From Phyllobates terribilis (taxonomy: Eukaryota), in NCBI RefSeq assembly GCF_046119375.1, contig NW_027362761.1, positions 550,684,001 through 550,748,000 on the forward strand: a DNA stretch of 64,000 bases. Reading direction: 5' to 3'. Both the position numbers and the translations under genes were made by a program. The notes under the pieces were generated by a model. That model saw only the letters and a program-made list of their open reading frames with translations, did not search any database and was not told the origin of the DNA. This document shows positions 19,665 to 52,600 of this stretch, piece after piece (positions within the stretch are counted from its first letter, which is position 1; each line of letters begins with the position of its first letter).

Positions 19665-21291
19665 CAGTACAGACCAAAAGTTTGGACACACTTTCTCATT
19701 TAAAGATTTTTCTGTATTTTGATGACTATGAAAATTGTACATTCGCACTGAAGGCATCAAAACTATAAATTAACACAGGTGGAATTATATACTTAACAAA
19801 AAAGTGTGAAACAACTGAAAATATGTCTTATATTCTAGGTTCTTCAAAGTAGCCACCTTTTGCTTTGATGACTGCTTTGCACACTCTTGGTATTCTCTTG
19901 ATGAGCTTCAAGAGGCAGTCACTGGAAATGGTCTTCCAACAATCTTGAAGGAGTACCCAGAGATGCTTAGCACTTGTTGGCCCTTTTGACTTCACTCTGT
20001 GGTGCAGCTCACCCCAAACCATCTCGATTGGGTTCAGGTCTTGTGACTATGGAGGCCAGGTCATCTGGCGTAGCACCCCATCTCTCTCCTTCTTGGTCAA
20101 ATAGCCCTTACACAGCCTGGAGGTGTGTTTGGGGTCATTATCCTGTTAAAAAGTAAATGACGGTCCAACTAAACGCAAAGCGGATGGAATAGCATGCCGC
20201 TGCAAGATGCTGTGATTGCCATGCTGGTTCAGTATGCCTTCAATTTTTAAATAATTCCCAACAGTGTCACCAGCAAAGCACCCCCACACCATCACACCTC
20301 CACCTCCATGCTTCACGGTGGGAACTAGGCATGTAGAGTCCATCCGTTCACCTTTTCTGCGTCGCACAAAGACACGGTGGTTGGAACCAAAGATCTCAAA
20401 TTTGGACTCATCAGACCAAAGCACAGATTTCCACTGGTCTAATGTCCATTCCTTGTGTTCTTTAGCCCAAACAAGTCTCTTCTGCTTGTTGCCTGTCCTT
20501 AGCAGTGGTTTCCTAGCAGCTATTTTACCATGAAGGCCTGCTGCACAAAGTCTCCTCTTAACAGTTGTTGAAGAGATGTGTCTGCTGTTAGAACTCTGTG
20601 TGGCATTGACCTGGTTTCTAATCTGAGCTGCTGTTAACCTGCGATTTCTGAGGCTGGTGACTCGGATAAATTTATCCTCAGAAGCAGAGGTAACTCTTGG
20701 TCTTCCTTTCCTGGGGCGGTCCTCATGTGAGCCAGTTTCTTTGTAGCACTTGATGGTTTTTGCAACTGCACTTGGGGACACTTTCAAAGTTTTCCCAATT
20801 TTACGGACTGACTGACCTTCATTTCTTAAAGTAATGATGGCCACTCGTTTTTCTTTACTTAGCTGCTTTTTTCTTGCCATAATACAAATTCTAACAGTCT
20901 ATTCAGTAGGACTATCAGCTGTGTATCCACCTGACTTCTGCACAACACAACTGATGGTCCCAACCCCATTTATAACGCAAGAAATCCCACTTATTAAACC
21001 TGACTGGGTACGCCTCTAAAGTGAAAACCATTTCCGGTGACTACCTCTTGAAGCTCATCAAGAGAATGCCAAGAGTGTGCAAAGCAGTCATCAAAGCAAA
21101 AGGTGGCTACTTTGAAGAATCTAGAATATAAGACATATTTTCAGTTGTTTCACACGTTTTTGTTAAGTATATAATTCCACATGTGTTAATTCATAGTTTT
21201 GATGCCTTCAGTGTGAATGTACAATTTTTATTGTCAGGAAAATACAGAAAAATCTTTAAAAGAGAAGGTGTGTCCAAACTTTTGGTCTGTA

Positions 21292-25230: not shown

Positions 25231-26728
25231 TGGGAGAGTGAGGTCCCTGCATGCCATTGTAAGGATCTGAAAAAGTGTTTCATTTGTAAGTACTTTTAAA
25301 AGTCATGTTTAGTGATTACAAACATAGACATTATGGTTTAAAAGGGTAAGAGTGAATTTTCTTTACTAATTGTGCAAAGGGTTATTTTGTCTCACGAGAT
25401 GCAGGATCCAAAATCAGAGTCCAGTAAAAACACTTGAACTGATTTCAGTGGGACTGCAGTGAATCCCAATAGTGTCTGGTTGGGGGAAGATCTGCATCAT
25501 ATGTTTAATCCTGATTGTATGGTAGGAAAAATGTTCTTTACTTATCAAATTCTTCAGCTGTGTCATAGAAATACATTGTAGAATTGCTGCTTACATTACC
25601 ACCCAGCTCTTTGGAAGTGTCGTTAATCCACAAAGTGTTAGTGTGATTTGAAATGGTAGACTTGTAATAATTGAGTGTGCAGGCACAAACCAAACACCCT
25701 TTGTTAACTTGAAACTAGTATTAAATATTTTAGGCTACTCTTGTCCTTTGATTTGTTTTAAATCTAGTTTAAACTTAGCCTTTGCATTTTAAGTAGAGTA
25801 TTGGACGGAATAGTGTTAGGGAGGTTTCATAAGAAATGCAGAATCTTGGTGAGGATCATCATAATAATTGTACCTATTCAGCTTATCATAAAGATAGGAA
25901 ACCATGAGTATAAATGGAGGTCTTTATGGATTTTCATTATCTAGCTTGTGTTTTTACTGGAGGAAAAGATTCATCCAAAGGATAATGGATTTAGTAGCAT
26001 TACCTTTATAATTAATAGTTTCTAAAGAGTGATTCAGAGCCTTAGCTACTTATGTCAGGGACCTCTCAGGTGATGAACTGTGGATGAGAACATCATCTGC
26101 AAATAATCTGACACATTGATCAGTGGAAACAATATTTATGGCAGAAATATCTACTGATAATCATCTATGTCGAGTAAGGGGACACAATATAATCACAAAA
26201 ATGAATGGGAACTATAATTACCCCTGATGTTTCCCATTGGAAATCTTGAAATTAGATGTTAAGTTTCCGAATGTGTAAACTATGGCAGATGGACAGCACT
26301 AAAGGACCATAATAGCTCTAATAAAAGAATACAAATTTACTAAGTACTTCCTTTGGGTTCACTCTGTCAAACACCCTCTCTGCATCTAAAGAAAGGAGCA
26401 TGGTAGGTGCTCAACTCACAGCCACCGCCAACTAGACATTCAAAAATGACCAGTCCCATCAAAGGTCTGCCTACCTTCATAAACCACATCTGAACTCTAA
26501 TAAATATTGTCAGGAGAATGTCAAGTAAGCGGTTGGCTAACAAGTAATAATTTGAGGTCTGATTTCAGCAACGAAATTGGCTTAAAATTATGAGGCAAAT
26601 CTAATATGCAAATTGCCTCTTCAGAGAAAAAGAGGACTTGAACTCGATAGCGCCACCTATTGGAAGCAGCGATCCTACGAGTCACAATCAACCCTTTAAT
26701 GAGTCGTGCAATGTGACTTAGGATAAAA

Positions 26729-26810
26729 GCCAAATCAGAATCTCAATTTTCAGACACAGTGTTTTGTTCTGTTGGCCCTCATCAGTGCAAAGTATGAGAA
26801 CTGATTTGGC
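26729..26810 (-). ncRNA. Type I hammerhead ribozyme motif, copy 1 (core mutated)
   Basis: Minus strand: GCCAAATCAG-TTCTC-ATAC-TTTGCA CTGATGA GGGCCAACAGAAC AAAAC ACTGT GTC|TGAAAA-TT-GAGA-TT-CTGATTTGGC. The GAAA core reads AAAA. Confidence 0.72.
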
Positions 26811-26937
26811 TAGATGAGAGGCTCTGGACTGAGGTCTAAGGGGTAACGTTTCTCCTTGTGGAGAGTGACATACCGGCTCTGGCATGTCAAGGTAAGGAGA
26901 CTCATTCGCCGTGCAATGCTCCTCTGGGAAATTTAAT

Positions 26938-26945
26938 ATGCAAAT
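26938..26945. promoter_or_regulatory. Octamer motif ATGCAAAT (also at 26606-26613)
   Basis: Exact match, once per 332-bp unit. Function not shown. Confidence 0.5.
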
Positions 26946-27060
26946 TGCCTCTTCAGAGAAAAAGAGGACTTGAACCCTAAAGCGCCACCTATTGGAAGCA
27001 GCAATCCTACAAGTCACAATCAACCCTTTAACGAGTCGTACAATATGACTTAGGATAAAA

Positions 27061-27142
27061 GCCAAATTAGAATCTCAATTTGCAGACACGGAGTATCGGG
27101 TTGTTGGTCCTCGTCAGTGCAAAGTATGAGATCTGATTTGGC
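27061..27142 (-). ncRNA. Type I hammerhead ribozyme motif, copy 2 (core mutated)
   Basis: Minus strand: GCCAAATCAGATCTCATACTTTGCA CTGACGA GGACCAACAACCC GATAC TCCGT GTC|TGCAAATTGAGATTCTAATTTGGC. Stem I TTTGCA/TGCAAA is perfect, but GAAA reads GATA. Confidence 0.72.
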
Positions 27143-28779
27143 AAGATGAGAGGCTCTGGAATGAGGTCTAAGGGGTAACGTTTCTCCTTGTGGAGAGTGA
27201 GGCAAATCTAGGGATTTTTACAGTTTGGGGCTTTTTAAGAAAGATAACTGAAGCAGTGATTTAATTGGAGGCACATTGACAGACACAGACAGAAAAGGAC
27301 TCCAAGTCATATGGGCCCTTTGCAATCCAATAACTTATCATAATGCACAGTTCCATCTGCCTTGGCAGTTGCAATTCACCCCCTTTGGGCCCTGTGCAGT
27401 TGCACAGGTTGCACCATTGATATGTCCACCCTGATTGAAGGGCCTGGTCAAGAAATGTGGTAAAATGGATCCAGAGGATTTTTGGAAATCACTGGAGATC
27501 CAGTTAGAACCAGGACATTTGCTATAATACTTAGCCTATTGCTTTTAGTATCTATTTTTAGTGGACTGTTTACTTGAATGAAAACTCATAGTCGCAACAA
27601 TTTGATTTAAAAATGCCCCTTATTTTCTCCATATCTGGTACTGAAGTTTAAGGGACCAAATCGAATTATATAATGTAGAGCAATATTCAGTAAAATGGTC
27701 TCCTCTGGCTTTAGGATGTTGGAATGAATTGCCTTTATGCAGCAAAAAGGGATCCTAGACTTGGTGCAAGGAGCTAGATTTGTTCTCATACTAATATAAT
27801 TAATTTTTAACAGTCATAAGGCTAAGTCTTTTTATAAAAATTAATTTCATGTAAATGAGTGTATTTTAAAAATGGCTAAAGCTCTTGAAGCAGAGAAAGG
27901 CTCTTTAATTTTATCTATATAGATCAGCAAGTTGGTTGGGACTGTAAAGTGATGTGTGCGTGAGCTGCCTATTTCGCTTGTCAAATGAAGCTTCCTCTCA
28001 TTGTGGCCTTCATAAACCTTAATGAACTGGATAAGCAATGTGGGGCAAGGCCATGAAAAGACTTTACTATACTACAAACATTCATATCCATGATGCTTAT
28101 AGAAAAGTTGTTGGTGAACATACACATAGGTTACTAAGTGCAATAGGTCAAAAAACACATCAATAAAAAGTACATAGTCCAGGAAAGTAAATAGTTACAA
28201 AGGAGCATCACAGCAATAGGCATAGAAGAAAGAAAAACCTTCTCTTGAGTTTAAACATACGGGCACAGAGGCAGCTCAGAATCCAAAAACTGGAAGTCAT
28301 CATGAGCTAGGATGAACCTAGTAGAGAAAACAAACTCATAATAGAAAACATGGAATGTTATTTAGAAACCTAAAATCCATCAAGGCTATTTGTCAGTAAG
28401 ATAAAATGCAGCTGAAAGTCTATGAGGCTAGGTCTCTAAATGTAGAGGATGATAACATGACTCGATTATCTCACCTTGACTGATTTAAATAGTCCTCTGC
28501 TTTCTGTAGGTCACTGTCATCCTCTCTTTGGGCAAATAGTCAGGGGAGCACCTTATATTCTACATGCCATGATGCTCCTACGGTTTAAGCTTTCATTCCA
28601 TACATAGACACAGTAAAAGGCAACAGTTTTCATGCCATTCTTCGAAATGATTAACTCAACTGAGAAGCCTCATTTACACTCTATATTGTTGTTACGTAAG
28701 ACCATGTTTTTGTTTTTTTGTTTTTTTAACGGCCTTCGGCTCAATCTTGAGCCTTAATGAGTTGATGGATAATGATGAG

Positions 28780-32753: not shown

Positions 32754-33876
32754 TTAATTGTGTGGATTCTATAGAGGAAAACCAAAAAGAATTCCATAAT
32801 AATTTACAAGGCGTTTAAGCCTCTGTGGCAAAGATGAGAGAGACTGTGCTTACAATGATCTTTATCCAACTGCTTCACCAAACACAACCTTACAGTGTGT
32901 CAAAGCTCAAAAAAATCTTGGCTAATTAAAACTGAAGGCTGAAGCCATAACCTCTAGAGAGGTCTCTGAGAGCAAAATGTTTCCAAAGTACTCTTTGTGT
33001 TCCGTGGTAGTGCCAGCTATCAGATGTTTCTTTGCAGAAATTCCTAGAATTTTTGAGTGGCCAAACAGGACGATGTGCTGCTGAAAAGATCTTTTATGCA
33101 GCTAAAAAAACATTGATGTCACTCGACAAACAAGCATTTTGCAAGTTCTTAGTTGATCGGCAGCCTGTTTACAGTGCACGATTATCGTGAAATGAGCATT
33201 CCTAGAAATGCTCATTCACGATGATTAAGCAGTGTAAATTGACCTTTAACCTATTAACATGTGCCAGTTATTGTGTTTTATATTCTTTCCAGTGCACTTT
33301 ATTGGATTGCCTTTTCTTAATTCGGACCTAGCTATTGATTGACCATGGTGTGGGAGTAATTCTATTATTATTGCTCCAATATTGACCTTTAAGGGTATGT
33401 GCCCACAATGCAGATTTGAAGGAGAAATTTCCTGAGCGTTTTTGTCTTTCCCTGGCAGAAAAAAACACATGCAGATTTACATGCATTTTTGACGCCTTTT
33501 TGAGTATCAATGAATGATTTTTGGAGTTAAATAAAGTTGGCAGGACATTGCTTAAGCCCTTGGATTACCATAAGAGTTGGGGTGAGTATATTCGTTCCTT
33601 TAAATTATTAACCACCTTGTCGGTTGTATTTCAAATAAAGTGTTTACACTGTGTCTGTCTGTTTCTTTACTTTGTTAGATCTGATTGACGCCTTGACATC
33701 ACCAAACAAAAGAGCTGGGTGTCAGCTAGTCCCATTCACCCAATCTTTGTCAGCATTCACGTAATTTATGCGACTGCTGTGAGATGTTTTCATAGAATCA
33801 TAGAATCATAGAATGGTAGAGTTGGAAGGGACCTCCTGGGTCATCTGGTCCAACCCCCTGCTCAAAGCAGGATTCT

Positions 33877-36666
33877 CTAGATCATCTCAGACAGATGTCT
33901 GTCCAGCCTCTGTTTGAAGACGTCCATTGAAGGGGAACTCACCACCTCTTGTGGCAGCCTGTTCCACTCATTAATCACCCTAACTGTCAAAAAGTTTTTT
34001 CTAATATCTAATCTGTGTCTCCTCCCATTTAGTTTCATCCCATTGCTTCTAGTCTTTCCTTGTGCAAATGAGAATAAAGATGATCCTTCTAAAATGTGAC
34101 AGCCCTTGACATATTTGTAGACAGCTATTAAGTCTCCTCTCAGTCTTCTTTTTTGCAAGCTAAACATTCCCAAATCCTGCAACCGTTCCTCATAGGACAT
34201 GGTTTGCAGACCAGTCACCATTCTGGTCGCTCTTCTCTGAACTTGCTCCAGTTTGTCTATGTCTTTTTTAAAATGTGGTGCCCAAAACTGTACACAGTAT
34301 TCCAGATGAGGTCTGACCAAAGAGGAGTAAAGACCGATAATGACTTCACGTGATCTAGACTGTATGCTTCTGTTAATACATCCCAGAATTGTATTTGCCT
34401 TTTTTGCTGCTGCATCACACTGTTGACTCATGTTCAGTCTATGATCTATTAGTATACCTAAGTCTTTTTCACATGTACTGTTGCTTAGCTCTATTCCTCC
34501 CATTCTGTATATGCTTTTTTCATTTTTATTGCCCAGATGTAGTACTTTGCATTTTTCCCTGTTAAAAACCATTCTGTTGGTTGCTGCCCACTGCTCCAGT
34601 TTATTTAGGTCTTTTTGAATCCTCTCTCTCTCTTCTCTAGTATTAGCTATCCCTCCTAGCTTTGTGTCATCAGCAAATTTAATCAGTTTACCCTCAATTC
34701 CTTCATCTAAATCATTGATAAAGATGTTGAACAATACAGGTCCCAGGACGGAGCCCTGTGGTACCCCACTTGAGACATTCATCCAGCTGGATGTGAAGCC
34801 ATTTACAACCACCCTTTGAGTCCGATCACTAAGCCAGTTATGAATCCACCTAACAGTTGCCTGGTCCATTGCATACTTGGTCATTTTTTCAATAAGGATG
34901 GTGTGAGATACTTTGTCAAATGCTTTGCTGAAGTCAAGATATACTATATCTACAGCATTTCCCTGATCCACCCAGTCAGTGATTCTGTCATAGAAGGAAA
35001 TTAAGTTAGTCTCACATGACTTGTTAGTTACAAACCCATGCTGACTCTGGTTAATCACTTCATTCTTATCCATGTACTTACATACATGATGTTTAATAAT
35101 TTTTTCAAAGATCTTTCCTGGTATAGAAGTCAGACTCACCGGCCTATAGTTCCCTGGGTCCACCTTCTTCCCCTTTTTGAAGATAGGAACAACATTTGCT
35201 CTTCTCCAGTCTTCTGGGACTTCTCCTGTTCTCCAAGAATTTTCAAAGATTATGGAGAGTGGTTCTAAAATTTCTTCTACGATCTCCTTCAGTACTCTGG
35301 GGTGTAATTCATCTGGACCTGGAGACTTGAACTCATTTATGTTAGCTAAATATTCCCTCACAATCTTTCTGTTTACAGATAACTTGGATTCCTCTATTCC
35401 TTTAAAAGGACAGTGAAGATCAGTTGATGTTACATTTTCTTTCTGAGAGAAAACAGATGCAAAATAAGAATTAAAAAGTTCGGCCTTCTCAACATCCTCT
35501 CTTACCATTTCTCCATTTTCATCCTGTAAAAATCCTATAGCATCTTTGACTTTTCTTTTACTTTTGACATACCCCCAAAATCCTTTTTTATTGCTTTTGA
35601 CATCTCTTGCAAGCCTTAATTCATTGTCAGCTTTAGCTAACCTGATACGTGCCCTGCAGGATCTGCAGACTGCATTATAATCTTCTTTAGATATGCCTCC
35701 CTCTTTCCATTTAATAAACATTTCTTTCTTTCTTTTTAGCATGTGTTTAAGTTCTGTGTTCATCCATCCTGGTTTCCTTAAATGCTTCCCATTCTTCCTA
35801 CTTTTCGGGATTGTTAACGATTGTGCTTTGAGAATCTCATTTTTAAAAATTTCCCATCCTTCCTGGACATTTTTGTCCTCAAGGACATCCAGCCATTGGA
35901 TCCCTCCTATTCTCTTTCTGAGTCTCTTAAAATCTGCCTTTCTAAAATCTAACCTTGAAGTTTGAGTCTTCACATGTCTTCCTCCTCTAGTTATCCAAAA
36001 TTCTATAATAGCATGATCGCTGCCTCCTAGGGTCCCAGCCACCTTTACCTCCTCAACCATTTCCTCCCTGTTTATAAGGATTAGATCCAAAGTAGCAGAT
36101 CCCCTTGTTTTCTCCCCTACCTTTTGGAAGATAAAGTTGTCAGCAAGAGAGGATAAGAATTTGCTTGACCTGTTAGTTTTACTTGAGAGAGATTCCCAAC
36201 AAATGTCTGGATAGTTGAAATCTCCCATGACCACTACGTCATATTCTTTGGAGAACTTGGTCATTTGACACATAAAGAGTTCATACATATCTTCAGCTTG
36301 CCCAGGTGGCCTGTAGTAAATGCCTACAATGGTGTCCTTTCCGTTGTTCTCTCCTTGTATTCTTACCCAAACAGTTTCCACAGAACTCCCAGTTTCTGAA
36401 GCTTCAATCTCTGTGCAGATATACGCTTTTCTAACATACAATGCAACACCTCCTCCTCGTTTACCAAGTCTGTTTCTTGCAAATAAGTTGTATCCTTTTA
36501 GCCTTTTATTCCAATCATGTGTATCGTCCCACCAAGTTTCAGTGATTCCAATGACATCATATTCCTTTTCCTGCATTAGTAGTTCCAATTCTCCTTGTTT
36601 GTTGCCCATGCTTTGTGCATTTGTATAAAAACATTTTAGTTTGTGATTGGTTTCTCTTCCTCCCAT
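33877..36666 (-). CDS. CR1 ORF2: APE endonuclease plus reverse transcriptase, intact 929 aa
   Basis: Endonuclease motifs YTNAQS, GITETWW, YRPP, MGDFN, LDL and GSDH. RT motifs NYRPVSLTS, QHGF, YLDFSKAFD, GVPQGSVLGP and FADD. No stop or frameshift. Confidence 0.96.
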   Translation of the reverse strand: MGGRETNHKLKCFYTNAQSMGNKQGELELLMQEKEYDVIGITETWWDDTHDWNKRLKGYNLFARNRLGKRGGGVALYVRKAYICTEIEASETGSSVETVWVRIQGENNGKDTIVGIYYRPPGQAEDMYELFMCQMTKFSKEYDVVVMGDFNYPDICWESLSSKTNRSSKFLSSLADNFIFQKVGEKTRGSATLDLILINREEMVEEVKVAGTLGGSDHAIIEFWITRGGRHVKTQTSRLDFRKADFKRLRKRIGGIQWLDVLEDKNVQEGWEIFKNEILKAQSLTIPKSRKNGKHLRKPGWMNTELKHMLKRKKEMFIKWKEGGISKEDYNAVCRSCRARIRLAKADNELRLARDVKSNKKGFWGYVKSKRKVKDAIGFLQDENGEMVREDVEKAELFNSYFASVFSQKENVTSTDLHCPFKGIEESKLSVNRKIVREYLANINEFKSPGPDELHPRVLKEIVEEILEPLSIIFENSWRTGEVPEDWRRANVVPIFKKGKKVDPGNYRPVSLTSIPGKIFEKIIKHHVCKYMDKNEVINQSQHGFVTNKSCETNLISFYDRITDWVDQGNAVDIVYLDFSKAFDKVSHTILIEKMTKYAMDQATVRWIHNWLSDRTQRVVVNGFTSSWMNVSSGVPQGSVLGPVLFNIFINDLDEGIEGKLIKFADDTKLGGIANTREERERIQKDLNKLEQWAATNRMVFNREKCKVLHLGNKNEKSIYRMGGIELSNSTCEKDLGILIDHRLNMSQQCDAAAKKANTILGCINRSIQSRSREVIIGLYSSLVRPHLEYCVQFWAPHFKKDIDKLEQVQRRATRMVTGLQTMSYEERLQDLGMFSLQKRRLRGDLIAVYKYVKGCHILEGSSLFSFAQGKTRSNGMKLNGRRHRLDIRKNFLTVRVINEWNRLPQEVVSSPSMDVFKQRLDRHLSEMI

Positions 36667-36788
36667 ATTTTTATTATTTAAATTGTTTTGTCTTTGTTCT
36701 TCTTTTCCACTTCCAGTAGCAGAGATCTCAATAGTATTTGTCAGCTGTATGGCTTTTTCTGGCCTTTTGCTTCCCTTCCCACATTGTT

Positions 36789-37538
36789 CTAGTTTAAAGC
36801 TCTTCTGATGAGTGTAGCAAGGCGACTTCCAAATACATGTTTTCCAGTCTTCGCAAGGTGCACCCCATCTCTAGCAAGTAGTCCATCGTATAGGTAATTC
36901 ATTCCGTGATCCAGAAATCCAAATCCTTGTTGACGGCACCATCGACGTAGCCAGTTGTTTACCTGTAGAATCTTATTCCACCTCATTGTTCCATGGCCAT
37001 CCACTGGGAGGATGGATGAGAAGACCACCTGCGCTCCCAATTCTTTCACTTTCTTGCCTAAGTCTTCAAAGTCACTGCAGATGGTTTCCAGGTCCTTTCT
37101 TGCGGTGTCATTTGTCCCCACATGTATTAGCAGGAATGGGTAGTGATCTGTAGGTCTGAAGAGTCTTGATATCCTGTCAGACACATCTTTAATTTTTGCT
37201 CCTGGGAGACAGCACATTTCTCTTGAGGTTATGTCTGGTCTGCAGATAGTGGCCTCTGTTCCTCTTAACAGGGAATCCCCCATGACCACCACTCTCCGTT
37301 TTTTCTTCACAACATTCTTCTTTCTCCATCCAGGAGGATTCTGAGGGCTTACAAGGTTATTCATTGCTGGCAAAGTCTTATTTTGCTGTATTTCTTCATG
37401 GTTCTCCTGCGTGAGAGCCTGGTACTGGTTCCTGAGCAGTATGGGTGCTGACTGCCTCTCGATCCTCCTGCTTCTGTGGGTCACATGCTTCCATTCCTCT
37501 GTTTCGTCAGGTGCAGTTCGAATTTCTTCTCTTTTTTC
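36789..37538 (-). pseudogene. CR1 ORF1, C-terminal SGNH/GDSL esterase-like domain (5'-truncated)
   Basis: Motifs VVVMGDSLLRG, PGAK, HVGTND and DGVHL. The frame stays open upstream of the GTG at 37484 to 37538, where homology appears to end. Confidence 0.88.
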
Positions 37539-41989: not shown

Positions 41990-44290
41990 AGAAGGCTGAG
42001 GAACTACCGAGGACCAGCTGACGTTACTGGAACCCGGATGGGTAGCAGAAGGTACAAGAGCCAATGGAACTACCGAGGACCAGCTGACGGTACTGGAACT
42101 CGGTTATTAAGCAGGAGGTACCTGTGCCAGAAAGCACTACCAAGGACCAGCAGACGTTGGTGGAACTTGGATACCGAGAAGGAGGCACCTAAACCAAAGG
42201 CACTGCCGAGAACCAGCTGACGGTACTGGAACCCGGATGGGTAGCAGAAGGTACAAGAGCCAATGGAACTACCGAGGACCAGCTGACGGTACTGGAACTC
42301 GGTTACTAAGCAGGAGGTACCTGTGCCAGAAAGCACTACCAAGGACCAGCAGACGTTGGTTGAACTTGGATACCAAGAAGGAGGCACCTAATCCAAAGGC
42401 ACTGCCGAGAACCAGCTGACAGTACTGGAACCCAGATGGGTAGCAGAAGGTACAAGAGCCAATGGAACTACCGAGGACCAGCTGATGGTACTGGAAAACG
42501 ATTACTAAGGAGGAGGTACCTGTGCCAGAAACCACTACCAAGGACCAGAAGACATTGGTGGAACTTTGATACCGAGAAGAAGGCACCTAATCCAAAGGCA
42601 CTGCAGAGAACCAGCTGACGGTACTGGAACCCGGATGGGTAGCAGAAGGTACCCATTTAAAGAAAAGTTTCAAGGCCACGAGCCGGCCGCAGTTACCAAA
42701 ACCCACAGTCCTACAGGGGGTGCTTGTCCTTTTGGCACTATGGAACCAGCCTTCATTGCCAGATCCCGCAGCCCACATAGGAGTCACCTAAACTGCAGGC
42801 ACCATAGAGTCGGCTAACCCGACCGCAACACGACAGGACAACGCATTGGAGGCAAAGTGACGTTGACACTACCCAGAAACAGCTGGCGTGCTGGAACCAG
42901 GCTGGGCAGGAGGGAGTACCCGTGCCAAAGACACTGCCGAGAACCAGCTGACGGTACTGGAACCCGGATGGGTAGCAGAAGGTACAAGAGCCAATGGAAC
43001 TACCAAGGGCCAGCTGATGGTACTGGAACTCGGTTACTAAGCAGGAGGTACCTGTGCCAGAAAGCACTACCAATGACCAGCAGACGTTGGTGGAACTTGG
43101 ATACCGAGAAGGAGGCACCTAATCCAAAGGCACTGCCGAGAACCAGCTGACAGTACTGGAACCCGAATGGGTAGCAGAAGGTACAAGAGCCAATGGAACT
43201 ACCGAGGACCAGCTGATGGTACTGGAACTTGGTTACTAAGCAGGAGGTACCTGTGCCAGAAAGCACTACCAAGGACCAGCAAACGTTGGTGGAACTTGGA
43301 TACCGAGAAGGAGGCACCTAATCCAAAGGCACTGCCGAGAACCAGCTGACGGTACTGGAACCCGGATGGGTAGCAGAAGGTACCCATGTAAAAAAAAGTT
43401 TCAAGGCCGCGAGCCGGCCGCAGTTACCAAAACCCACAGTCCTACAGGGAGTGCTTGTCCTATTGGCACTATGGAACCAGCCTTCATTGCCAGATCCCGC
43501 AGCCCACATAGGAGTCACATAAACTGCAGACACCATAGAGTCGGCTAACCCGACCGCAACATGACAGGACAACGCATTGGAGGCAAAGTGACATTGACAC
43601 TACCCGGAAACAGCTGGCGTGCTGGAACCAGGCTGGGCAGGAGGGAGTACCCGTGCCAAAGACACTGCCGAGAAACAGCTGACGGTACTGGAACCCGGAT
43701 GGGTAGCAGAAGGTACAAGAGCAAATGGAACTACCGAGGACCAGCTGACGGTACTGGAACCCGGATGGGTAACAGAAGGTACAAGAGCCAATGTAACTGC
43801 CGAAGACCAGCTGACGGTACTGGAACTCGGTTACTAAGCAGGAGGTACCTGTGCCAGAAAGCACTACCAAGGACCAGCATACGTTGGTGGACCTTGGATA
43901 CCGAGAAGGAGGCACCTAATCCAAAGGCACTGCCGAGAACCAGCTGACGGTACTGGAACCCGGATGGGTAGCAGAAGGTACACATGTAAAAAAATGTTTC
44001 AAGGCCGCAAGCTGGCCGCAGTTACCAAAACCCACAGTCCTACAGGGGGTGCTTGTCCTATTGGCACTATGGAACCAGCCTTCATTGACAGATCCCACAG
44101 CCCACATAGGAGTCACCTAAACTGCTGGCACCATAGAGTCGGCTAACCCGACCGCAACGCGACAGGACAACGCATTGGAGGCAAAGTGACATTGACACTA
44201 CCCGAAAACAGCTGGCGTGCTGGAACCAGGCTGGGCAGGAGGGAGTACCCGTGCCAAAGACACTGCTGGGAAACAACTGGCGGTGCTGGA
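41990..44290. repeat. Nested tandem array: 66/67/66-bp subunits forming a 199-bp unit, interleaved with a 333-bp segment
   Basis: Subunits start CCAGCTGACGGTACTGGAAC. The 199-bp period shows in the ORF track (42070, 42269, 42468). The higher-order segment recurs 731 and 598 bp apart. Confidence 0.93.
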
Positions 44291-44291
44291 A

Positions 44292-47200
44292 CCCAGGGTA
44301 AATACTAAAAACAGAGTGGAGCCAGAGGCGTAATTGGAGCAAGTTTTAAATCAGTAGTACAGTGGATGCGGACCAAGCAGGAGAATTTGACGGACACAGA
44401 GCAGGGGAACAGCTGACGTTACTGAACCCCAATAACACTGGAGCAAGCGTTGACTGTGCAGACGGCACTTCTGAGCAGCAACTAGCGGTATTGGAGCCCA
44501 GGGTAAATACTAAAAACAGAGGAGCCAGAGGTGTAATTGGAGCAAGTTTTAAATCAGTAGTAGAGTGGATGTGGACAAAGCAGGAGAATTTGCCGGACAC
44601 ACAACAGGGGAACAGCTGACGTTACTGAACCCCAAAAACACTGGAGCAAGCATTGACTGTGCAGACGGCACTTCTGAGCAGCAAATGGCGGTATTGGAGC
44701 CCAGGGTAAATACTAAAAACAGAGGAGCCAGAGGTGTAATTGGAGCAAGTTTTAAATCAGTAGTACAGTGGATGTGGACAAAGCAGGAGAATTTGCCGGA
44801 CACACAGCAGGGGAACAGCTGACGTTACTGAACCCCAATAACACTGGAGCAAGCGTTGACTGTGCAGATGGCACTTCTGAGCAGCAACTAGCGGTATTGG
44901 ATCCCAGGGTAAATACTAAAAACAGAGGTGTAATTGGAGCAAGTTTTAAATCAGTAGTACAGTGGATGTGGACAAAGCAGGAGAATTTGCCGGACACACA
45001 GCAGGGGAACAGCTGACTTTACTGAACCCCAATAACACTGGAGGAAGCGTTGACTGTGCAGACGGCACTGCTGAGCAGCAGCTAGCGAAATTGGAGCCCA
45101 GGGTAAATATTAAAAACAGAGGAGCCAGAGGTGTAATTGGAGCAAGTTTTAAATCAGTAGTACAGTGGATGTGGACGAAGCAGGAGAATTTGCCGGACAC
45201 ACAGCAGGGGAACAGCTGACGTTACTGAACCCCAATAACACTGGAGCAAGTGGTGACTGTGCAGACGGTACTTCTGAGCAGCAACTAGCGGAATTGGAGC
45301 CCAGGGTAAATACTAAAAACAGAGGAGCCAGAGGTTTAATTGGAGCAAGTTTTAAATCAGTAGTACAGTGGATGTGGACAAAGCAGGAGAATTTGCCGGA
45401 CACACAGCAGGGGAACAGCTGACGTTACTGAACCCCAATAACACTGGAGCAAGCGTTGACTGTGCAGATGGCACTTCTGAGCAGCAACTAGCGGTATTGG
45501 ATCCCAGGGTAAATACTAAAAACAGAGGAGCCATAGGTGTAATTGGAGCAAGTTTTAAATCAGTAGTACAGTGGATGTGGACAAAGCAGGAGAATTTGCC
45601 GGACACACAGCAGGGGAACAGCTGATGTTTCTGAATCCCAAAAACACTGGAGCAAGCGTTGACTGTGCAGACGGCACTTCTGAGCAGCAACTAGCGGTAT
45701 TGGAGCCCAGGGTAAATACTAAAAACAGAGGAGCCAGAGGTGTAATTGGAGCCAGTTTTAAATCAGTAGTACAGTGGATGTGGACAAAGCAGGAGAATTT
45801 GCCGGACACACAGCAGGGGAACAGCTGACGTTACTGAACCCCAATAACACTGGAGCAAGCGTCGACTGTGCAGATGGCACTTCTGAGCAGCAACTAGCGG
45901 TATTGGATCCCAGGGTAAATACTAAAAACAGAGGAGCCAGAGTTGTAATTGGAGCAAGTTTTAAATCAGTAGTACAGTGGATGTGGACAAAGCAGGAGAA
46001 TTTGCCGGACACACAGCAGGGGAACAGCTGATGTTACTGAACCCCAAAAACACTGGAGCAAGCGTTGACTGTGCAGACGGCACTTCTGAGCAGCAACTAG
46101 TGGTATTGGAGACCAGGGAAAATACTAAAAACAGAGGAGCCAGAGGTGTAATTGGAGCCAGTTTTAAATCAGTAGTACAGTGGATGTGGACAAAGCAGGA
46201 GAATTTGCCGGACACACAGCAGGGGAACAGCTGACGTTACTGAACCCCAATAACACTGGAGAAAACGTTGACTGTGCAGACGGCACTTCTGAGCAGCAAA
46301 TAGCGGTATTGGAGCCCAGGGTAAATACTAAAAACAGAGGAGCCAGAGGTGTAATTGGAGCAAGTTTTAAATCAGTAGTACAGTGGATGTGGACAAAGCA
46401 GGAGAATTTGCCGGACTCACATCAGGGGAACAGCTGACGGTCCTGAACCCCAATAACACTGGAGCAAGCATTGACTGTGCAGACGGCACTTCTGAGCAGG
46501 AACTATCAGTATTGGAGCCCAGGGTAAATACTAAAAACATAGGAGCCAGAGGTGTAATTGGAGCACGTTTTAAATCAGTAGTACAGTGGATGTGGACAAA
46601 GCAGGAGAATTTGCCGGACACACAGCAGGGGAACAGCTGACATTACTGAACCCCAATAACACTGGAGCAAGCGTTGACTGTGCAGATGGCACTTCTGAGC
46701 AGCAACTAGCGGTATTGGAGCCCAGGGTAATTACTAAAAACAGAGGTGTAATTGGAGCAAGTTTTAAATCAGTAGTAGAGTGGATGTGGACAAAGCAGGA
46801 GAATTTGCCGGACACACAGCAGGGGAACAGCTGACGTTACTGAACCCCAATAACACTGGAGCAAGCGTTGACTGTGCAGACGGCACTTCTGAGCAGCAAC
46901 TAGCGGAATTGGAGCCCAGGGTAAATACTAAAAACAGAGGAGCCAGAGGTGTAATTGGAGCAAGTTTTAAATCAGTAGTACAGTGGATGTGGACAAAGCA
47001 GGAGAATTTGCCGGACACACAGCAGGGGAACAGCTGACATTACTGAACCCCAATAACACTGGAGCAAGCGTTGACTGTGCAGATGGCACTTCTGAGCAGC
47101 AACTAGCGGAATTGGAGCCCAGGGTAAATACTAAAAACAGAGGAGCCAGAGGTGTAATTGGAGCAAGTTTTAAATCAGTAGTACAGTGGATATGGACAAA

Positions 47201-49560
47201 GCAGGAGAATTTGCCGGACACACAGCAGGGGAACAGCTGACATTACTGAACCCCAATAACACTGGAGCAAGCGTTGACTGTGCAGATGGCACTTCTGAGC
47301 AGCAACTAGCGGAATTGGAGCCCAGGGTAAATACTAAAAACAGAGGAGCCAGAGGTGTAATTGGAGCAAGTTTTAAATCAGTAGTACAGTGGATGTGGAC
47401 AAAGCAGGAGAATTTGCCGGACACACAGCAGGGGAACAGCTGACGTTACTGAACCCCAATAACACTGGAGCAAGCGTTGACTGTTCAGATGGCACTTCTG
47501 AGCAGCAACTAGCGGTATTGGATCCCAGGGTAAATACTAAAAACAGAGGAGCCAGAGGTGTAATTGGAGCAAGTTTTAAATCAGTAGTACAGTGGATGTG
47601 GACAAAGCAGGAGAATTTGCCGGACACACAGCAGGGGAACAGCTGATGTTACTGAACCCCAAAAACACTGGATCAAGCGTTGACTGTGCAGACGGCACTT
47701 CTGAGCAGCAACTAGCGGTATTGGAGCCCAGGGTAAATACTAAAAACAGAGGAGCCAGAGGTGTAATTGGAGCCAGATTTAAATCAGTAGTACAGTGGAT
47801 GTGGACAAAGCAGGAGAATTTGCCGGACACACAGCAGGGGAACAGCTGACGTTACTGAACCCCAATAACACTGGAGCAAGCGTTGACTGTGCAGACGGCA
47901 CTTCTGAGCAGCAACTAGCGGAATTGGAGCCCAGGGTAAATACTAAAAACAGAGGAGCCAGAGGTGTAATTGGAGCAAGTTTTAAATCAGTAGTACAGTG
48001 GATGTGGACAAAGCAGGAGAATTTGCCGGACACACAGCAGGGGAACAGCTGACATTACTGAACCCCAATAACACTGGAGCAAGCGTTGACTGTGCAGATG
48101 GCACTTCTGAGCAGCAACTAGCGGAATTGGAGCCCAGGGTAAATACTAAAAACAGAGGAGCCAGAGGTGTAATTGGAGCAAGTTTTAAATCAGTAGTACA
48201 GTGGATGTGGACAAAGCAGGAGAATTTGCCGGACACACAGCAGGGGAACAGCTGACATTACTGAACCCCAATAACACTGGAGCAAGCGTTGACTGTGCAG
48301 ATGGCACTTCTGAGCAGCAACTAGCGGAATTGGAGCCCAGGGTAAATACTAAAAACAGAGGAGCCAGAGGTGTAATTGGAGCAAGTTTTAAATCAGTAGT
48401 ACAGTTGATGTGGACAAAGCAGGAGAATTTGCCGGACACACAGCAGGGGAACAGCTGACGTTACTGAACCCCAATAACACTGGAGCAAGCGTTGACTGTT
48501 CAGATGGCACTTCTGAGCAGCAACTAGCGGTATTGGATCCCAGGGTAAATACTAAAAACAGAGGAGCCAGAGGTGTAATTGGAGCAAGTTTTAAATCAGT
48601 AGTACAGTGGATGTGGACAAAGCAGGAGAATTTGCCGGACACACAGCAGGGGAACAGCTGATGTTACTGAACCCCAAAAACACTGGATCAAGCGTTGACT
48701 GTGCAGACGGCACTTCTGAGCAGCAACTAGCGGTATTGGAGCCCAGGGTAAATACTAAAAACAGAGGAGCCAGAGGTGTAATTGGAGCCAGATTTAAATC
48801 AGTAGTACAGTGGATGTGGACAAAGCAGGAGAATTTGCCGGACACACAGCAGGGGAACAGCTGACGTTACTGAACCCCAATAACACTGGAGCAAGCGTTG
48901 ACTGTGCAGACGGCACTTCTGAGCAGCAACTAGCGGAATTGGAGCCCAGGGTAAATACTAAAAACAGAGGAGCCAGAGGTGTAATTGGAGCAAGTTTTAA
49001 ATCAGTAGTACAGTGGATGTGGACAAAGCAGGAGAATTTGCCGGACACACAGCAGGGGAACAGCTGACATTACTGAACCCCAATAACACTGGAGCAAGCG
49101 TTGACTGTGCAGATGGCACTTCTGAGCAGCAACTAGCGGAATTGGAGCCCAGGGTAAATACTAAAAACAGAGGAGCCAGAGGTGTAATTGGAGCAACTTT
49201 AAAATCTGTAGTAGTGAGAATGTGAACATAGCAGGAGAAATTGCCTTCCGCACAGCAGGGGAACAGCTGACGTTACTGAACCCCAATAACAGGGCAGCAA
49301 GTGTTGACTGTGCAGACGGCACTTCCGAGCGCCAACTGGCCGTGTTGGAGCTCCGTGATAATACTGAAAACAGAGGAGCCAGAGGTGTAATTGGAGCAAC
49401 TTTAAAATCTGTAGTAGTGAGAATGTGGACAGAGCAGGAGAAATTGCCGTCCGCACCGCAGGGGAACAGCTGACGTTACTGAACCCCAATAACATGGCAG
49501 CAAGTGTTGACTGTGCAGACGGCAGTTCCAAGTGCCAACTGGCAGTGTTGGAGCTCAGGA
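44292..49560. repeat. 203-bp tandem satellite: 24 near-identical units plus ~1.5 diverged units
   Basis: ORF-track starts from 44362 to 49013 step by 203 bp (194 bp for two units carrying a 9-bp deletion). Confidence 0.98.
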
Positions 49561-49617: not shown

Positions 49618-52600
49618 TTATTCTGGAAGAGGACTGGCAAATGCATGCGAGATCCAGGCCTTGTTCATTTTGAGAAAAGTAAGCCGGTCAACATTATCGG
49701 AGGATAGTCGCATGCGACGGTCTGTTAGTATACCACCTGCGGCACTAAAGACGCGTTCTGATAATACACTAGCAGCAGGGCAAGCTAGCACCTCCAATGC
49801 ATACTGACTAAGCTCTGGCCATGTATCCAGCTTACAGACCCAAAACTTGAAGGGAGAAGAGCCGTCTGGGAGTACACTAAGAGGGCAAGACATGTAGTCT
49901 GTCACCATCTGACGGAAACGTTGCCTCCTGCTGACTGGAGCCATCTGTGATGGTGTAGACATTTGTGGCGGCGGGGACACAAAACTTTGCCACATTTCGG
50001 CCATACTGGTCTTGCCTTGTGCTGAGGCGCTGCTTCTGCTCCCTCTTTGTGCAGAGGTTCCTCCACTGCCTCGACGCACTGAGCTGCTTTGTAAAGCACT
50101 AGCAGCACTGCTCTCGGTTGGAATGGAAAACATGATGGAATGCACCAGTGCGTCTTGGTACTCCCGCATTTTACGCTCCCGGTTCAACGGTGTTATGAGG
50201 CTTTGTAAGTTGTCCCGGTAGCGAGGATCTAGGAGGGTGGACACCCAATAATCAGCCGTGTTGAGAATGTGGGCGATGCGGCGGTCGTTTCTCAGGCACT
50301 GCAGCATGAAATCAACCATGTGCTGCAGACTGCAAACTGGCCAAGAAACGCTGTCCCCTGCTTGAGGCGTGATCTCTGCCTGCTCTGCATCACCCCACCC
50401 TCGCTCTAGATACTGACTACTAGAGCATTGTGTACCTCCCTCCTCTGGACAGATGTCTTCCTCATCCATTGACTCCTCCTCATCCTCCTCACAAAGTGAC
50501 CCCTGCCTAGGCCTTTGTGGGGAACCACGTTGCGCAGACTGTAGAGAAGCAGATGGCATTTGTGACTCCTCATCCTCCACCTCTTAGAAAACCTCGTCCC
50601 TTAGTGCTTGCAGTGTTTTTTCAAGCAGGCAGGTAAGGGGGATGGTCATGCTGACTAGTTCATCATCTCCATCCACGTGGAATAATCGAAGGCACGCAAA
50701 ACGTGGCAAATGTCATTCATAGAGGCCCACTCAGTGGTGGTGAAGTGTGAACGGCGCGCACTGCTGCAGCTGGTACTCCATTACTGCTGCCTGCTGCTCA
50801 CACAACCTCTCCAACATATGTAACGTTGAATTCCACCTGGTGGGTAGGTCACATATGATGCGATGTTCCGGAAGAATCGGCGCTGCAGAGCTGCAATGCG
50901 TGATCTTGCGTTGCTGGAACGCCGCAAGTGAGCGCACTCTATGCGGACCTTGTGAAGCAGTGCATCAAGATCCAGATAGTCCCTCAAAAAACTCTACACG
51001 ACCAAGTTGAGCACATGTGCCAGACATGGGATGTGAGTGAGGTTGCCTAGGCCCAGAGCTGCCACCAGATTTCGGCCATTGTCACACACTACCATGCCTG
51101 GCTGGAGATTCGCTGGCACAAACCACACGTCGTTCTGCTGCTTGATGGCATTCCAGAGCTCCTGCGCTGTGTGACTTCGATTCCCCAAATAAATTAATTT
51201 TAATACGGCCTGTTGACGTTTGGCCACGGCTGTGCTCATATCGGTCATCATAACAGGTAACCATTCATGGGTCGATGTGGAGGTAGACCGTGACGGCTCC
51301 TGCAGCGCTGATTCAGAGGAACTGGAGTATGAGGAAGAGTCAATGTGTACAGACTGGATTCCTGCAATCCTTGGAGTTGGCAGAACACGTACAGCGCCAC
51401 TCTCAAGATCTGTACCCGGCTCCACAACATTTACCCAATGGGCAGTGAGGGAAAGGTATCGTCCCTGTCCATGCTTACTGGTCCACGCATCGGTGGTCAG
51501 GTGGACCTTGCTACTGACGGTGTTTTGTAGCGCATGTTTAATTTTTCCCTCCACATGATGTTGCAGAGCAGGGACGGCTTGCCTGCTGAAATAAAAGCGG
51601 CTGGGCACGTTGTATTGTGGGACTGCCAATGCCATAAAGTTACAGAAGGTGTCAGTCTCCACCAGCCTGAATGATATCATTTCAAGGGCCAGTAGTTTAG
51701 CAATGCCAGCATTCAGAGCCTGTGCTCGGGGGTGGTTTGCAGAGTATGGGCGCCTTTTCTCCCATGCCTGTGCTACGATGGCTGTAGACTGGCCTGGGAG
51801 TGTGAGGATGACTGGGAAAGTGGTGTTGTGGGTGGAATTACACTGTGTCTCTGTACAACAGTGCCAGAGATTCTTCCATGGCGATCCTGTGAGGAAGCCG
51901 AACCAGCTGTGTGTGAGCTGGAGGAAGAGGCTACAACACGAGCTGAAGAGGTGGTAGGTGGCGCTGTAGGTTGGCCTAGGTCTTCAGTGTGTTTTTGTAA
52001 CTCCACCACGTGCTTGGTCCGCACATGTTTCCACATATTTGTGGTATTGAGGTTGCTGACACTTTTCCCTCTTTTCACCTTCTGATTACACAGCTTGCAT
52101 TTGACAAAGCAAATGTCATCTGCAACTGTGTCAAAAAAGGACCAGGCACTGCAAGTCTTGGGATTTTGGAAGAGCCATGCTCCTAATGGGTGCCGAAGTG
52201 GAGGCTACAGGCAACCAAGTCTGCCCCCTCCCTCTCCCTCCTTTCTGGTCTGTTCGGGGAATCTCTTCCTCAGAGCTGCTCCCACCACCTTCCTGTCCCT
52301 CATGCCATGATGGGTCAAGGACCTCATCATCTACACCACCCTCTTCAAACAACTGCTTCTCCTGGGTAGTCTCGACAGCACAGTACGCACCAGAAAGTGG
52401 CACCTGAGTCTCATCCTCAGATGCGTACTGAGGTGTGCTGCTGACCATAGGCACTGGCCCACCCGCCTCTTCAGATTCAGAGAGACAAAACGGTTGCGCA
52501 TCACTGCATACTACCTCTTCTTCAAATTCTCGAATTCTGCTTGGCTGGCCCCCTCTTTCCAAGCCAAGAGATTCAGAGAACAGAAGTAGAGATGGCTCCT

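Follow-up and report, generated by a model that had tools for sequence, protein, structure and literature searches.

Which enzyme moves retrozymes, from which template and from which starting point are questions stated as open in the portions of the literature compared here (PMC7229834, PMC7761336, bioRxiv 10.64898/2026.07.22.740005). The same questions are raised by a short element in a 64,000-nucleotide (nt) stretch of Phyllobates terribilis DNA (contig NW_027362761.1, positions 550,684,001 to 550,748,000; the whole stretch is called the window here), in which tandem 332-bp units with type I hammerhead ribozyme motifs lie on the minus strand. We read the element as a decayed non-long-terminal-repeat (non-LTR) retrozyme of 1.8 units, likely inserted by a Penelope-like reverse transcriptase (RT)/endonuclease, probably Neptune-type, from an RNA that was likely circular, and put the probability of this reading at about three in four. 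Retrozymes are already known from amphibians, being present in all seven species examined (bioRxiv 10.64898/2026.07.22.740005); the new part is the insertion footprint.

The window copy and its family

The 332-bp tandem period proposed in a preliminary description of this DNA is borne out by the best self-match shift (332; 253 of 288 positions identical, versus 54-92 at 14 other shifts tried) and by BLAST between the window units (91.3% over 275 bp). The insert body (26604-27197, minus strand) is 594 bp long, and the 13-bp direct repeat TGAGGCAAATCTA, likewise reported before along with the approximate number of units, is found at 26591 and at 27198. One copy of this target-site duplication (TSD) stands on the 3' side (26591-26603; its first 2 nt, minus strand, also continue the unit) and the other on the truncated 5' side (27198-27210; the final 3 nt, minus-strand TCA, fit the unit as well). 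The unit of the window copy has a GC content of 0.452 and a longest ATG open reading frame (ORF) of 55 aa, and no second copy of it was found elsewhere in the window. Unit positions are numbered from window 26941 downwards.

Each unit carries a minus-strand type I hammerhead with its GUC ending at 26753 or 27085, as the preliminary description had it. The downstream motif (26729-26810; CUGAUGA core at 26785-26779, cut at 26753/26752) and the upstream motif (27061-27142, cut at 27085/27084) are both broken, and by different core lesions, as had been noticed: downstream, G12 is changed to A (AAAAC), with two stem II mismatches and one stem I mismatch; upstream, GATAC replaces GAAAC, with two stem II changes and one stem III change. 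Because the cores and stem II are damaged in both units, neither monomer nor dimer of this copy would be expected to cut, judged by the standard hammerhead core, and the window copy is most likely inactive. Its stem I hairpins have fold z scores of -3.7 and -5.7, with none of 200 shuffles equally stable. The earlier helix assignment stood in its layout and was revised in its parts. Between the two named helices of the extended stem I lies a third of 5-6 bp that had been missed; stem II in the family has 4 bp (GGGC/GCCC) and a loop of 5 nt, where 3 bp and a loop of 7 nt had been given; and stem III is short, as stated, with three possible pairs round a 3-nt loop and a near-palindromic sequence. 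The covariance-model check suggested at that time gave a divided result: the window copies had no hammerhead match in Rfam at E<=1, and among four other loci only L013 responded, both of its copies matching Hammerhead_HH9 weakly (31 and 23 bits; the gathering score is 52 bits). A whalefall-1 match in the window region (20.5 bits) was taken as chance.

The family was surveyed in the 10.57-Gb genome. A one-unit query gave 5582 first-look candidates, of which 40 were scored; the best of these, from many contigs, were 94-95% identical. The exact 33-nt intact core occurs 808 times in the genome (reversed control, 0) and is carried by 9 of 40 hammerhead copies compared, which together suggests a few thousand family copies. 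Every column of these 40 copies has a clear majority and the majority core is intact, as is the consensus that the preliminary description built from the two window units, and a family lacking an intact core is contradicted by the 808 exact copies. Variation is concentrated at CpG, G12 of the core included; copies depart from the column majority by 2.9% on average at non-CpG positions and by 14% at CpG-type positions. Among 30 loci, consecutive complete hammerheads were found in L264 (four) and in L265, L266, L270 and L274 (three each), so the family counts as "active" in the sense of Li et al. (two consecutive complete hammerheads; Li, Clavereau & Pollet 2026, bioRxiv 10.64898/2026.07.22.740005) and the window copy does not.

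An older sister family has a unit of about 321 bp, 75% identical, with 2961 first-look candidates (e.g., L043:2205-2521; L206-L235). Over 30 copies drawn from the two families, pairing holds in 93.7% of cells, and four pairs in stems I and II are changed on both sides (23 cells, versus 8.3 in shuffles and 1-5 in slid controls); the number of double-changed pairs alone shows no excess over shuffles (266 of 500). Such compensatory changes, seen between families that are 75% alike, point to selection on hammerhead pairing during spread, with support that is moderate because the events are few, are shared by descent and involve no more pairs than shuffles do. A circular fold of one natural monomer reached -96.5 kcal/mol (z -2.6 versus 60 rough two-letter shuffles), mostly from stem I. 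In four sequencing runs, presumed to be of RNA and carrying four organism labels, contigs covered the unit at 85% likeness but not the window-copy flanks; they were left unused as evidence.

Insertion scars and resident Penelope-like elements

The first 30 loci came from a query ending near the main family end, here called site A, and the end statistics were therefore redone on 86 loci chosen by core alone (from the first 100 of the 808 cores, all on contig C1; four locus duplicates dropped). Site A ended 77 of these 86 copies. It lies about 148 nt past the cut, directly after GCAATTTGC(AT), and is found in the window at 26604-26613 (minus strand), where the octamer ATTTGCAT (26613-26606) ends; it is the candidate start of reverse transcription. 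A second 3' end, site B (unit 107-117; in the window, unit 107-114 at 26828-26835, minus strand, internal in this copy), is nearly confined to the arm opposite an A end, and a minor site C lies at unit 80-83. The 58 non-inverted copies ended at A in 52 cases, at B in one and elsewhere or in a complex way in five, with 5' ends scattered over the unit. The remaining 28 had inverted arms (19 A+B, 3 A+C, 6 other), so that 22 of 28 join A to B or C, 80-110 nt further on; A+A and B+B pairings were absent among the 28. Ends at A and B recur in the sister family, where inspection of 30 loci by eye gave eight inverted A+B pairs; its end counts come from a query that itself ended at A.

An exact duplication of 8-14 bp touched both junctions at 44 of the 86 loci, and 27 of these were 12-14 bp. 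Rebuilt targets were AT-rich, with A-rich then T-rich tracts on either flank, and microhomology at the A junction was 0-6 nt (mean 2.0 at 41 sites, versus 0.6 in permutations, 0 of 2000 of which reached it). A run of at least eight A at the right end was seen once in 86 copies, i.e., the family is without a poly(A) tail. LTR-like layout was absent from the mapped loci, where no dedicated search for a primer-binding site or polypurine tract was made. Insertions exceeded one unit at 53 of 86 loci and two units at 13, and multimers of up to seven units sit inside single TSDs. Rare variants were common to the units of one insertion in 206 of 1109 cases (18.6%), versus 1.3% between insertions, and subfamily alleles agreed at 0.86 on the same strand and 0.88 between inverted arms, versus 0.58 between insertions. 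Because site A lies so far beyond the cut and copies cross the cleavage site, the template would have been circular or an uncleaved multimer. TSD-flanked copies that run uncut across that site also fit the preliminary description of a noncoding dispersed retroelement made from circular or multimeric RNA, and its reading of the element as a ribozyme retroelement is supported; fixed start sites, inverted arms and the small nuclear RNA (snRNA)-type enhancer block treated below go beyond it.

A GIY-YIG search of the genome found Penelope-like elements (PLEs) with RT, CX4CxxC linker and endonuclease, the linker being a mark of Neptune and Nematis elements (PMC8557442). Two Neptune-type families each use two ends, a short one and, 75-85 nt beyond it, a tailed one. 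Among evaluable inverted pairs, a TSD was found in five of seven for family one (14, 14, 14, 18 and 13 bp, the 18 bp probably including microhomology) and in one of three for family two (13 bp). Each TSD-flanked pair consists of one short arm and one tailed arm; these head-to-head insertions are L157, L090/L172, L197/L178, L179/L155, L202 and L247/L246, with TSDs of 13-14(-18) bp. Pairs L153 and L177/L185 had no TSD and L248/L238 and L254/L255 no clear one; L173/L200 and L180/L201, in which the anchor motif was not found, stand outside the count, and L203-L205 have a single arm or none. The Neptune-type C9 pair was rejected, as it did not look like one insertion. Close to the tail end, both families also have a splice-donor-like motif, GGTGAGCTG, with a variant hammerhead-like motif lying upstream.

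These scars repeat the retrozyme pattern, which makes a resident Penelope-like enzyme the likely mover, and, judged by its scars, the retrozyme family acts like a nonautonomous PLE. A tail on one end only of inverted Penelope insertions is known (PMC8557442, PMC3846280), and the anole Poseidon protein in vitro nicks both strands of AT-rich DNA and uses two internal start sites that agree with genomic ends (PMC11167929).

Possible promoter, template and alternatives

On the minus strand, the unit has an octamer (26945-26938) followed by TTCCCAGAGGAGCATTG (26930-26914), a block (26914-26945) resembling an snRNA-type distal enhancer, and further on a CTCC stretch (26854-26868) whose core lies 82 nt after the octamer and in which site C falls. 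We take the motif following the octamer to be SPH-like and the CTCC stretch to resemble a proximal sequence element (PSE). In the genome's own U1 and U5 genes, an octamer lies 150-240 nt upstream and a CTCC core near -60; in U5 genes an SPH-like CCCA motif comes directly after the octamer, the order seen in the unit. In the sister family, CAATTTGCATATTTCCCAG occurs in 23 of 27 junctions, near the U5 layout, and the 332-bp family has five extra bases. When the unit was shuffled, octamer and CCCA core arose together in 23 of 20000 cases. If the CTCC stretch set a transcription start, this would fall near unit 138 (near window 26803), some 50 nt short of the cut. Conservation of the octamer is equally explicable by enzyme recognition, since site A lies inside it, and we regard an snRNA-type promoter in the unit as plausible. 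Newt satellite 2 has a promoter of this type (Coats 1994, as cited in PMC2220036), and a review describes retrozymes as seemingly without promoters and without a motif indicating their partner (PMC7761336). A tRNA box-B-like reading of GGTTCAAGTCC, made by eye, was dropped because the family is dimorphic at that position. The U1 genes (L061-L072) form a tandem array with a period of 1079 bp, and the eight U5 genes (L256-L263) fall into two promoter types.

Directly seen are the family, its intact core, the covariation, the fixed paired ends, the TSDs and the matching resident scars; the sequences suggest transcription, cleavage, circles and an enzyme of the following kind. Copies with a full upstream unit would be transcribed, probably by the unit's own snRNA-type promoter. 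The multimers would self-cleave at GUC, the near-palindromic stem III aiding dimers, and the monomers would be ligated into 332-nt circles, both steps being suggested by the motif, the covariation and known relatives. The scars suggest an enzyme that cuts AT-rich DNA with a stagger of about 12-14 bp and primes with 0-6 nt of microhomology. Reverse transcription would then start at site A inside the RNA and continue around the template across the cleavage site, yielding a product of 0.5-7 units with a random 5' end. In about one-third of events, the other target strand would prime a second cDNA at B or C, yielding head-to-head arms, one A-ended and one B-ended. Copies later decay, mostly at CpG, which is where G12 of the core is hit, and rare arrays extend in place.

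Several observations weigh against a retrozyme circle moved by a Neptune-type enzyme. An exact TSD of at least 8 bp at both junctions was missing from 42 of the 86 loci. Within insertions, alleles agreed at 0.91 at four non-CpG sites (317 of 348, L031 excluded; 0.67-0.96 by site) and L031 holds mixed units; this imperfect agreement and this mixture imply that a single circle is not the full explanation. An array of about 20 units (L294, G000:C7:126179674-126186248) ends at A and has a higher-order repeat and recurring internal deletions; because the deletions recur, it must have grown in place after insertion. The likeness of the CTCC stretch to the U1/U5 PSEs is no better than chance (P 0.34-1.0), and eight of nine predicted Xenopus retrozyme dimers were uncleaved in vitro (bioRxiv 10.64898/2026.07.22.740005). 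As for the enzyme, the unit had no notable BLAST match in 20 + 17 GIY-YIG loci or in 20 copies of the Penelope-like pseudo-LTR (pLTR). Local alignments to 12 pLTR regions gave one marginal match over site A in L074 (z 5.4; 0 of 60 shuffles reached the score, 24 tests made), and the L089 region aligned to the unit over the hammerhead core. The partner search sampled Neptune-type families only, a Poseidon partner not being looked for, and Poseidon in vitro used cut DNA and a start site without homology (PMC11167929), against the microhomology of the retrozyme family.

The same Penelope-type machinery might instead have copied an uncleaved linear multimer from tandem copies, in which case the hammerhead and circles would be irrelevant to mobilization. 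This also accounts for the crossing of the cleavage site in every core-selected copy that reaches A, for the mixed units of L031 and for allele agreement below full, and hammerhead mutants left insertion by the anole element unaffected in vitro (PMC11167929). We nonetheless consider it unlikely, as the hammerhead pairing has been kept by compensatory changes across the two families, the units of many multimers agree at diagnostic sites (L012, L044, L046 and L054), long source arrays seem scarce (a three-unit query found one, of about 20 units, in the 40 candidates scored) and axolotl retrozymes accumulate as circles (PMC7229834).

Whether the unit is instead a detached pLTR of an unidentified autonomous PLE family, its short copies being 5'-truncated ends and its tandems the result of later unequal crossover, turns on what precedes it. 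For Xenopus, matches to known transposons are reported for 24 of 57 retrozyme families, chiefly to PLE termini, together with a proposal of local amplification (bioRxiv 10.64898/2026.07.22.740005); here, the L294 array shows growth in place, and the order hammerhead, main end, tail resembles that of Neptune ends. Each unit is, however, preceded by another unit or by host DNA, with no common ORF end, and an ORF with RT and GIY-YIG running into its 5' side was found at 0 of 115 loci, so the caution in the preliminary description that the unit might be the terminal repeat of a coding Penelope element found no support there. Flank pairs have only scattered other repeats in common. PLE remnants occur in the flanks of 7 of the 115 loci, downstream or at a distance; those near L027, L099 and L109, remnants of Penelope-like ORFs, start within about 90 bp of the retrozyme, beyond its TSD. 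Multi-unit and inverted insertions within one TSD imply arrival at once, and the hammerhead, whose stem I is extended, is of the canonical form. We hold this explanation to be very improbable.

L1 insertions have TSDs of 7-20 bp and 5' inversions. A short interspersed element-like repeat mobilized by a long interspersed nuclear element (LINE; L1, CR1/L2 or RTE) with L1-style twin priming is scarcely credible even so, for although LINEs are present (an RT + APE ORF at window 33877-36870, minus strand, is open over 997 aa), the copies lack a poly(A) or simple-repeat tail, the 3' end falls within a tandem unit, inverted arms stop at a fixed rather than random site, either arm may be the longer, and the matching scars of this genome belong to PLEs.

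Relatives, neighbouring repeats and meaning

By its sequence, the element has all the tested features of a non-LTR retrozyme. With the metazoan members it shares a noncoding tandem unit of 150-450 bp (here 332; amphibian mean, 316) (Cervera & de la Pena 2020, PMC7229834; bioRxiv 10.64898/2026.07.22.740005), a canonical type I hammerhead, a GC content below 50%, a TSD of more than 4 bp, few units per locus and coexisting PLEs, as far as those accounts were compared; it differs in the octamer/SPH-like block and the fixed ends of its 332-bp unit. Paired fixed ends in retrozymes were found nowhere described in the literature compared, the supplements, which may bear on this point, standing outside the comparison; in the portions of PMC7229834 and of the main text of bioRxiv 10.64898/2026.07.22.740005 covered, neither fixed start sites nor a TSD match to resident PLEs is reported.

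Newt satellite 2 and the axolotl repeats Rtz_331 (HHR_Amex1) and Rtz_353 (HHR_Amex2) are alike in their approximately 330-bp length, internally looped extended stem I and weak near-palindromic stem III; the unit would work in the manner of salamander satellite 2, the likeness compared here being one of layout. The helix III of HHR_Amex1 type, one pair with a palindromic tetraloop, differs from the three possible pairs and 3-nt loop here. Endonuclease-bearing PLEs share 5' truncation, partial tandems, an inverted 5' arm, a tail at a single end, TSDs of 8-14 bp, AT-rich targets, two internal starts and a main end preceded by a type I hammerhead (PMC11167929, PMC8557442, PMC3846280, in the parts compared). 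They differ in having an ORF, which the unit lacks, and a minimal hammerhead, where that of the unit is canonical; the unit also has start-site microhomology and no clear nucleotide homology with the pLTRs tested. Tails measure 80-110 nt in the retrozyme, 30-40 nt in published PLEs and 75-85 nt in the two Neptune-type families of this genome.

A further multi-copy repeat adjoins the element at 27284-27385, and contigs from each of the four runs mentioned above cover it. Window ORFs with a Pfam match are fragments of other mobile elements, among them pieces of an LTR-retrotransposon integrase (380-1525), a Tc1-type transposase (20146-20898) and a hAT transposase (49618-50583). The LINE has an upstream esterase-like ORF (36789-37538, minus strand); a tandem repeat of 8 bp occupies 33790-33814. 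Adjoining the hAT piece, a 203-bp tandem unit is repeated 26 times with 95% likeness (44274-49528), and additional arrays with 199-, 133- and 66-bp periods lie at 41999-43982.

For the retrozyme, the family supplies genomic scars that agree with those of resident PLEs, exact start coordinates and natural intact multimers. Multi-unit copies sit within one TSD, which argues that most tandems arrive ready-made rather than growing in place, and the rule of one arm ending at A and the other at B bears on the origin of Penelope tails and inverted arms. More tentatively, at somewhat less than even odds, the family may be a self-contained parasite living as an RNA circle: an snRNA-type promoter and a hammerhead would give the circle of 332 nt, on which a Penelope-like enzyme acting as a dimer would use two fixed internal starts, one per strand of a staggered cut. 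If this is true, the strict A+B pairing would identify the unexplained Penelope "tail" as the start site of the second-strand primer, B-ended arms would leave an outward-facing promoter beside host DNA, and the class of enzyme that moves animal retrozymes would be named.

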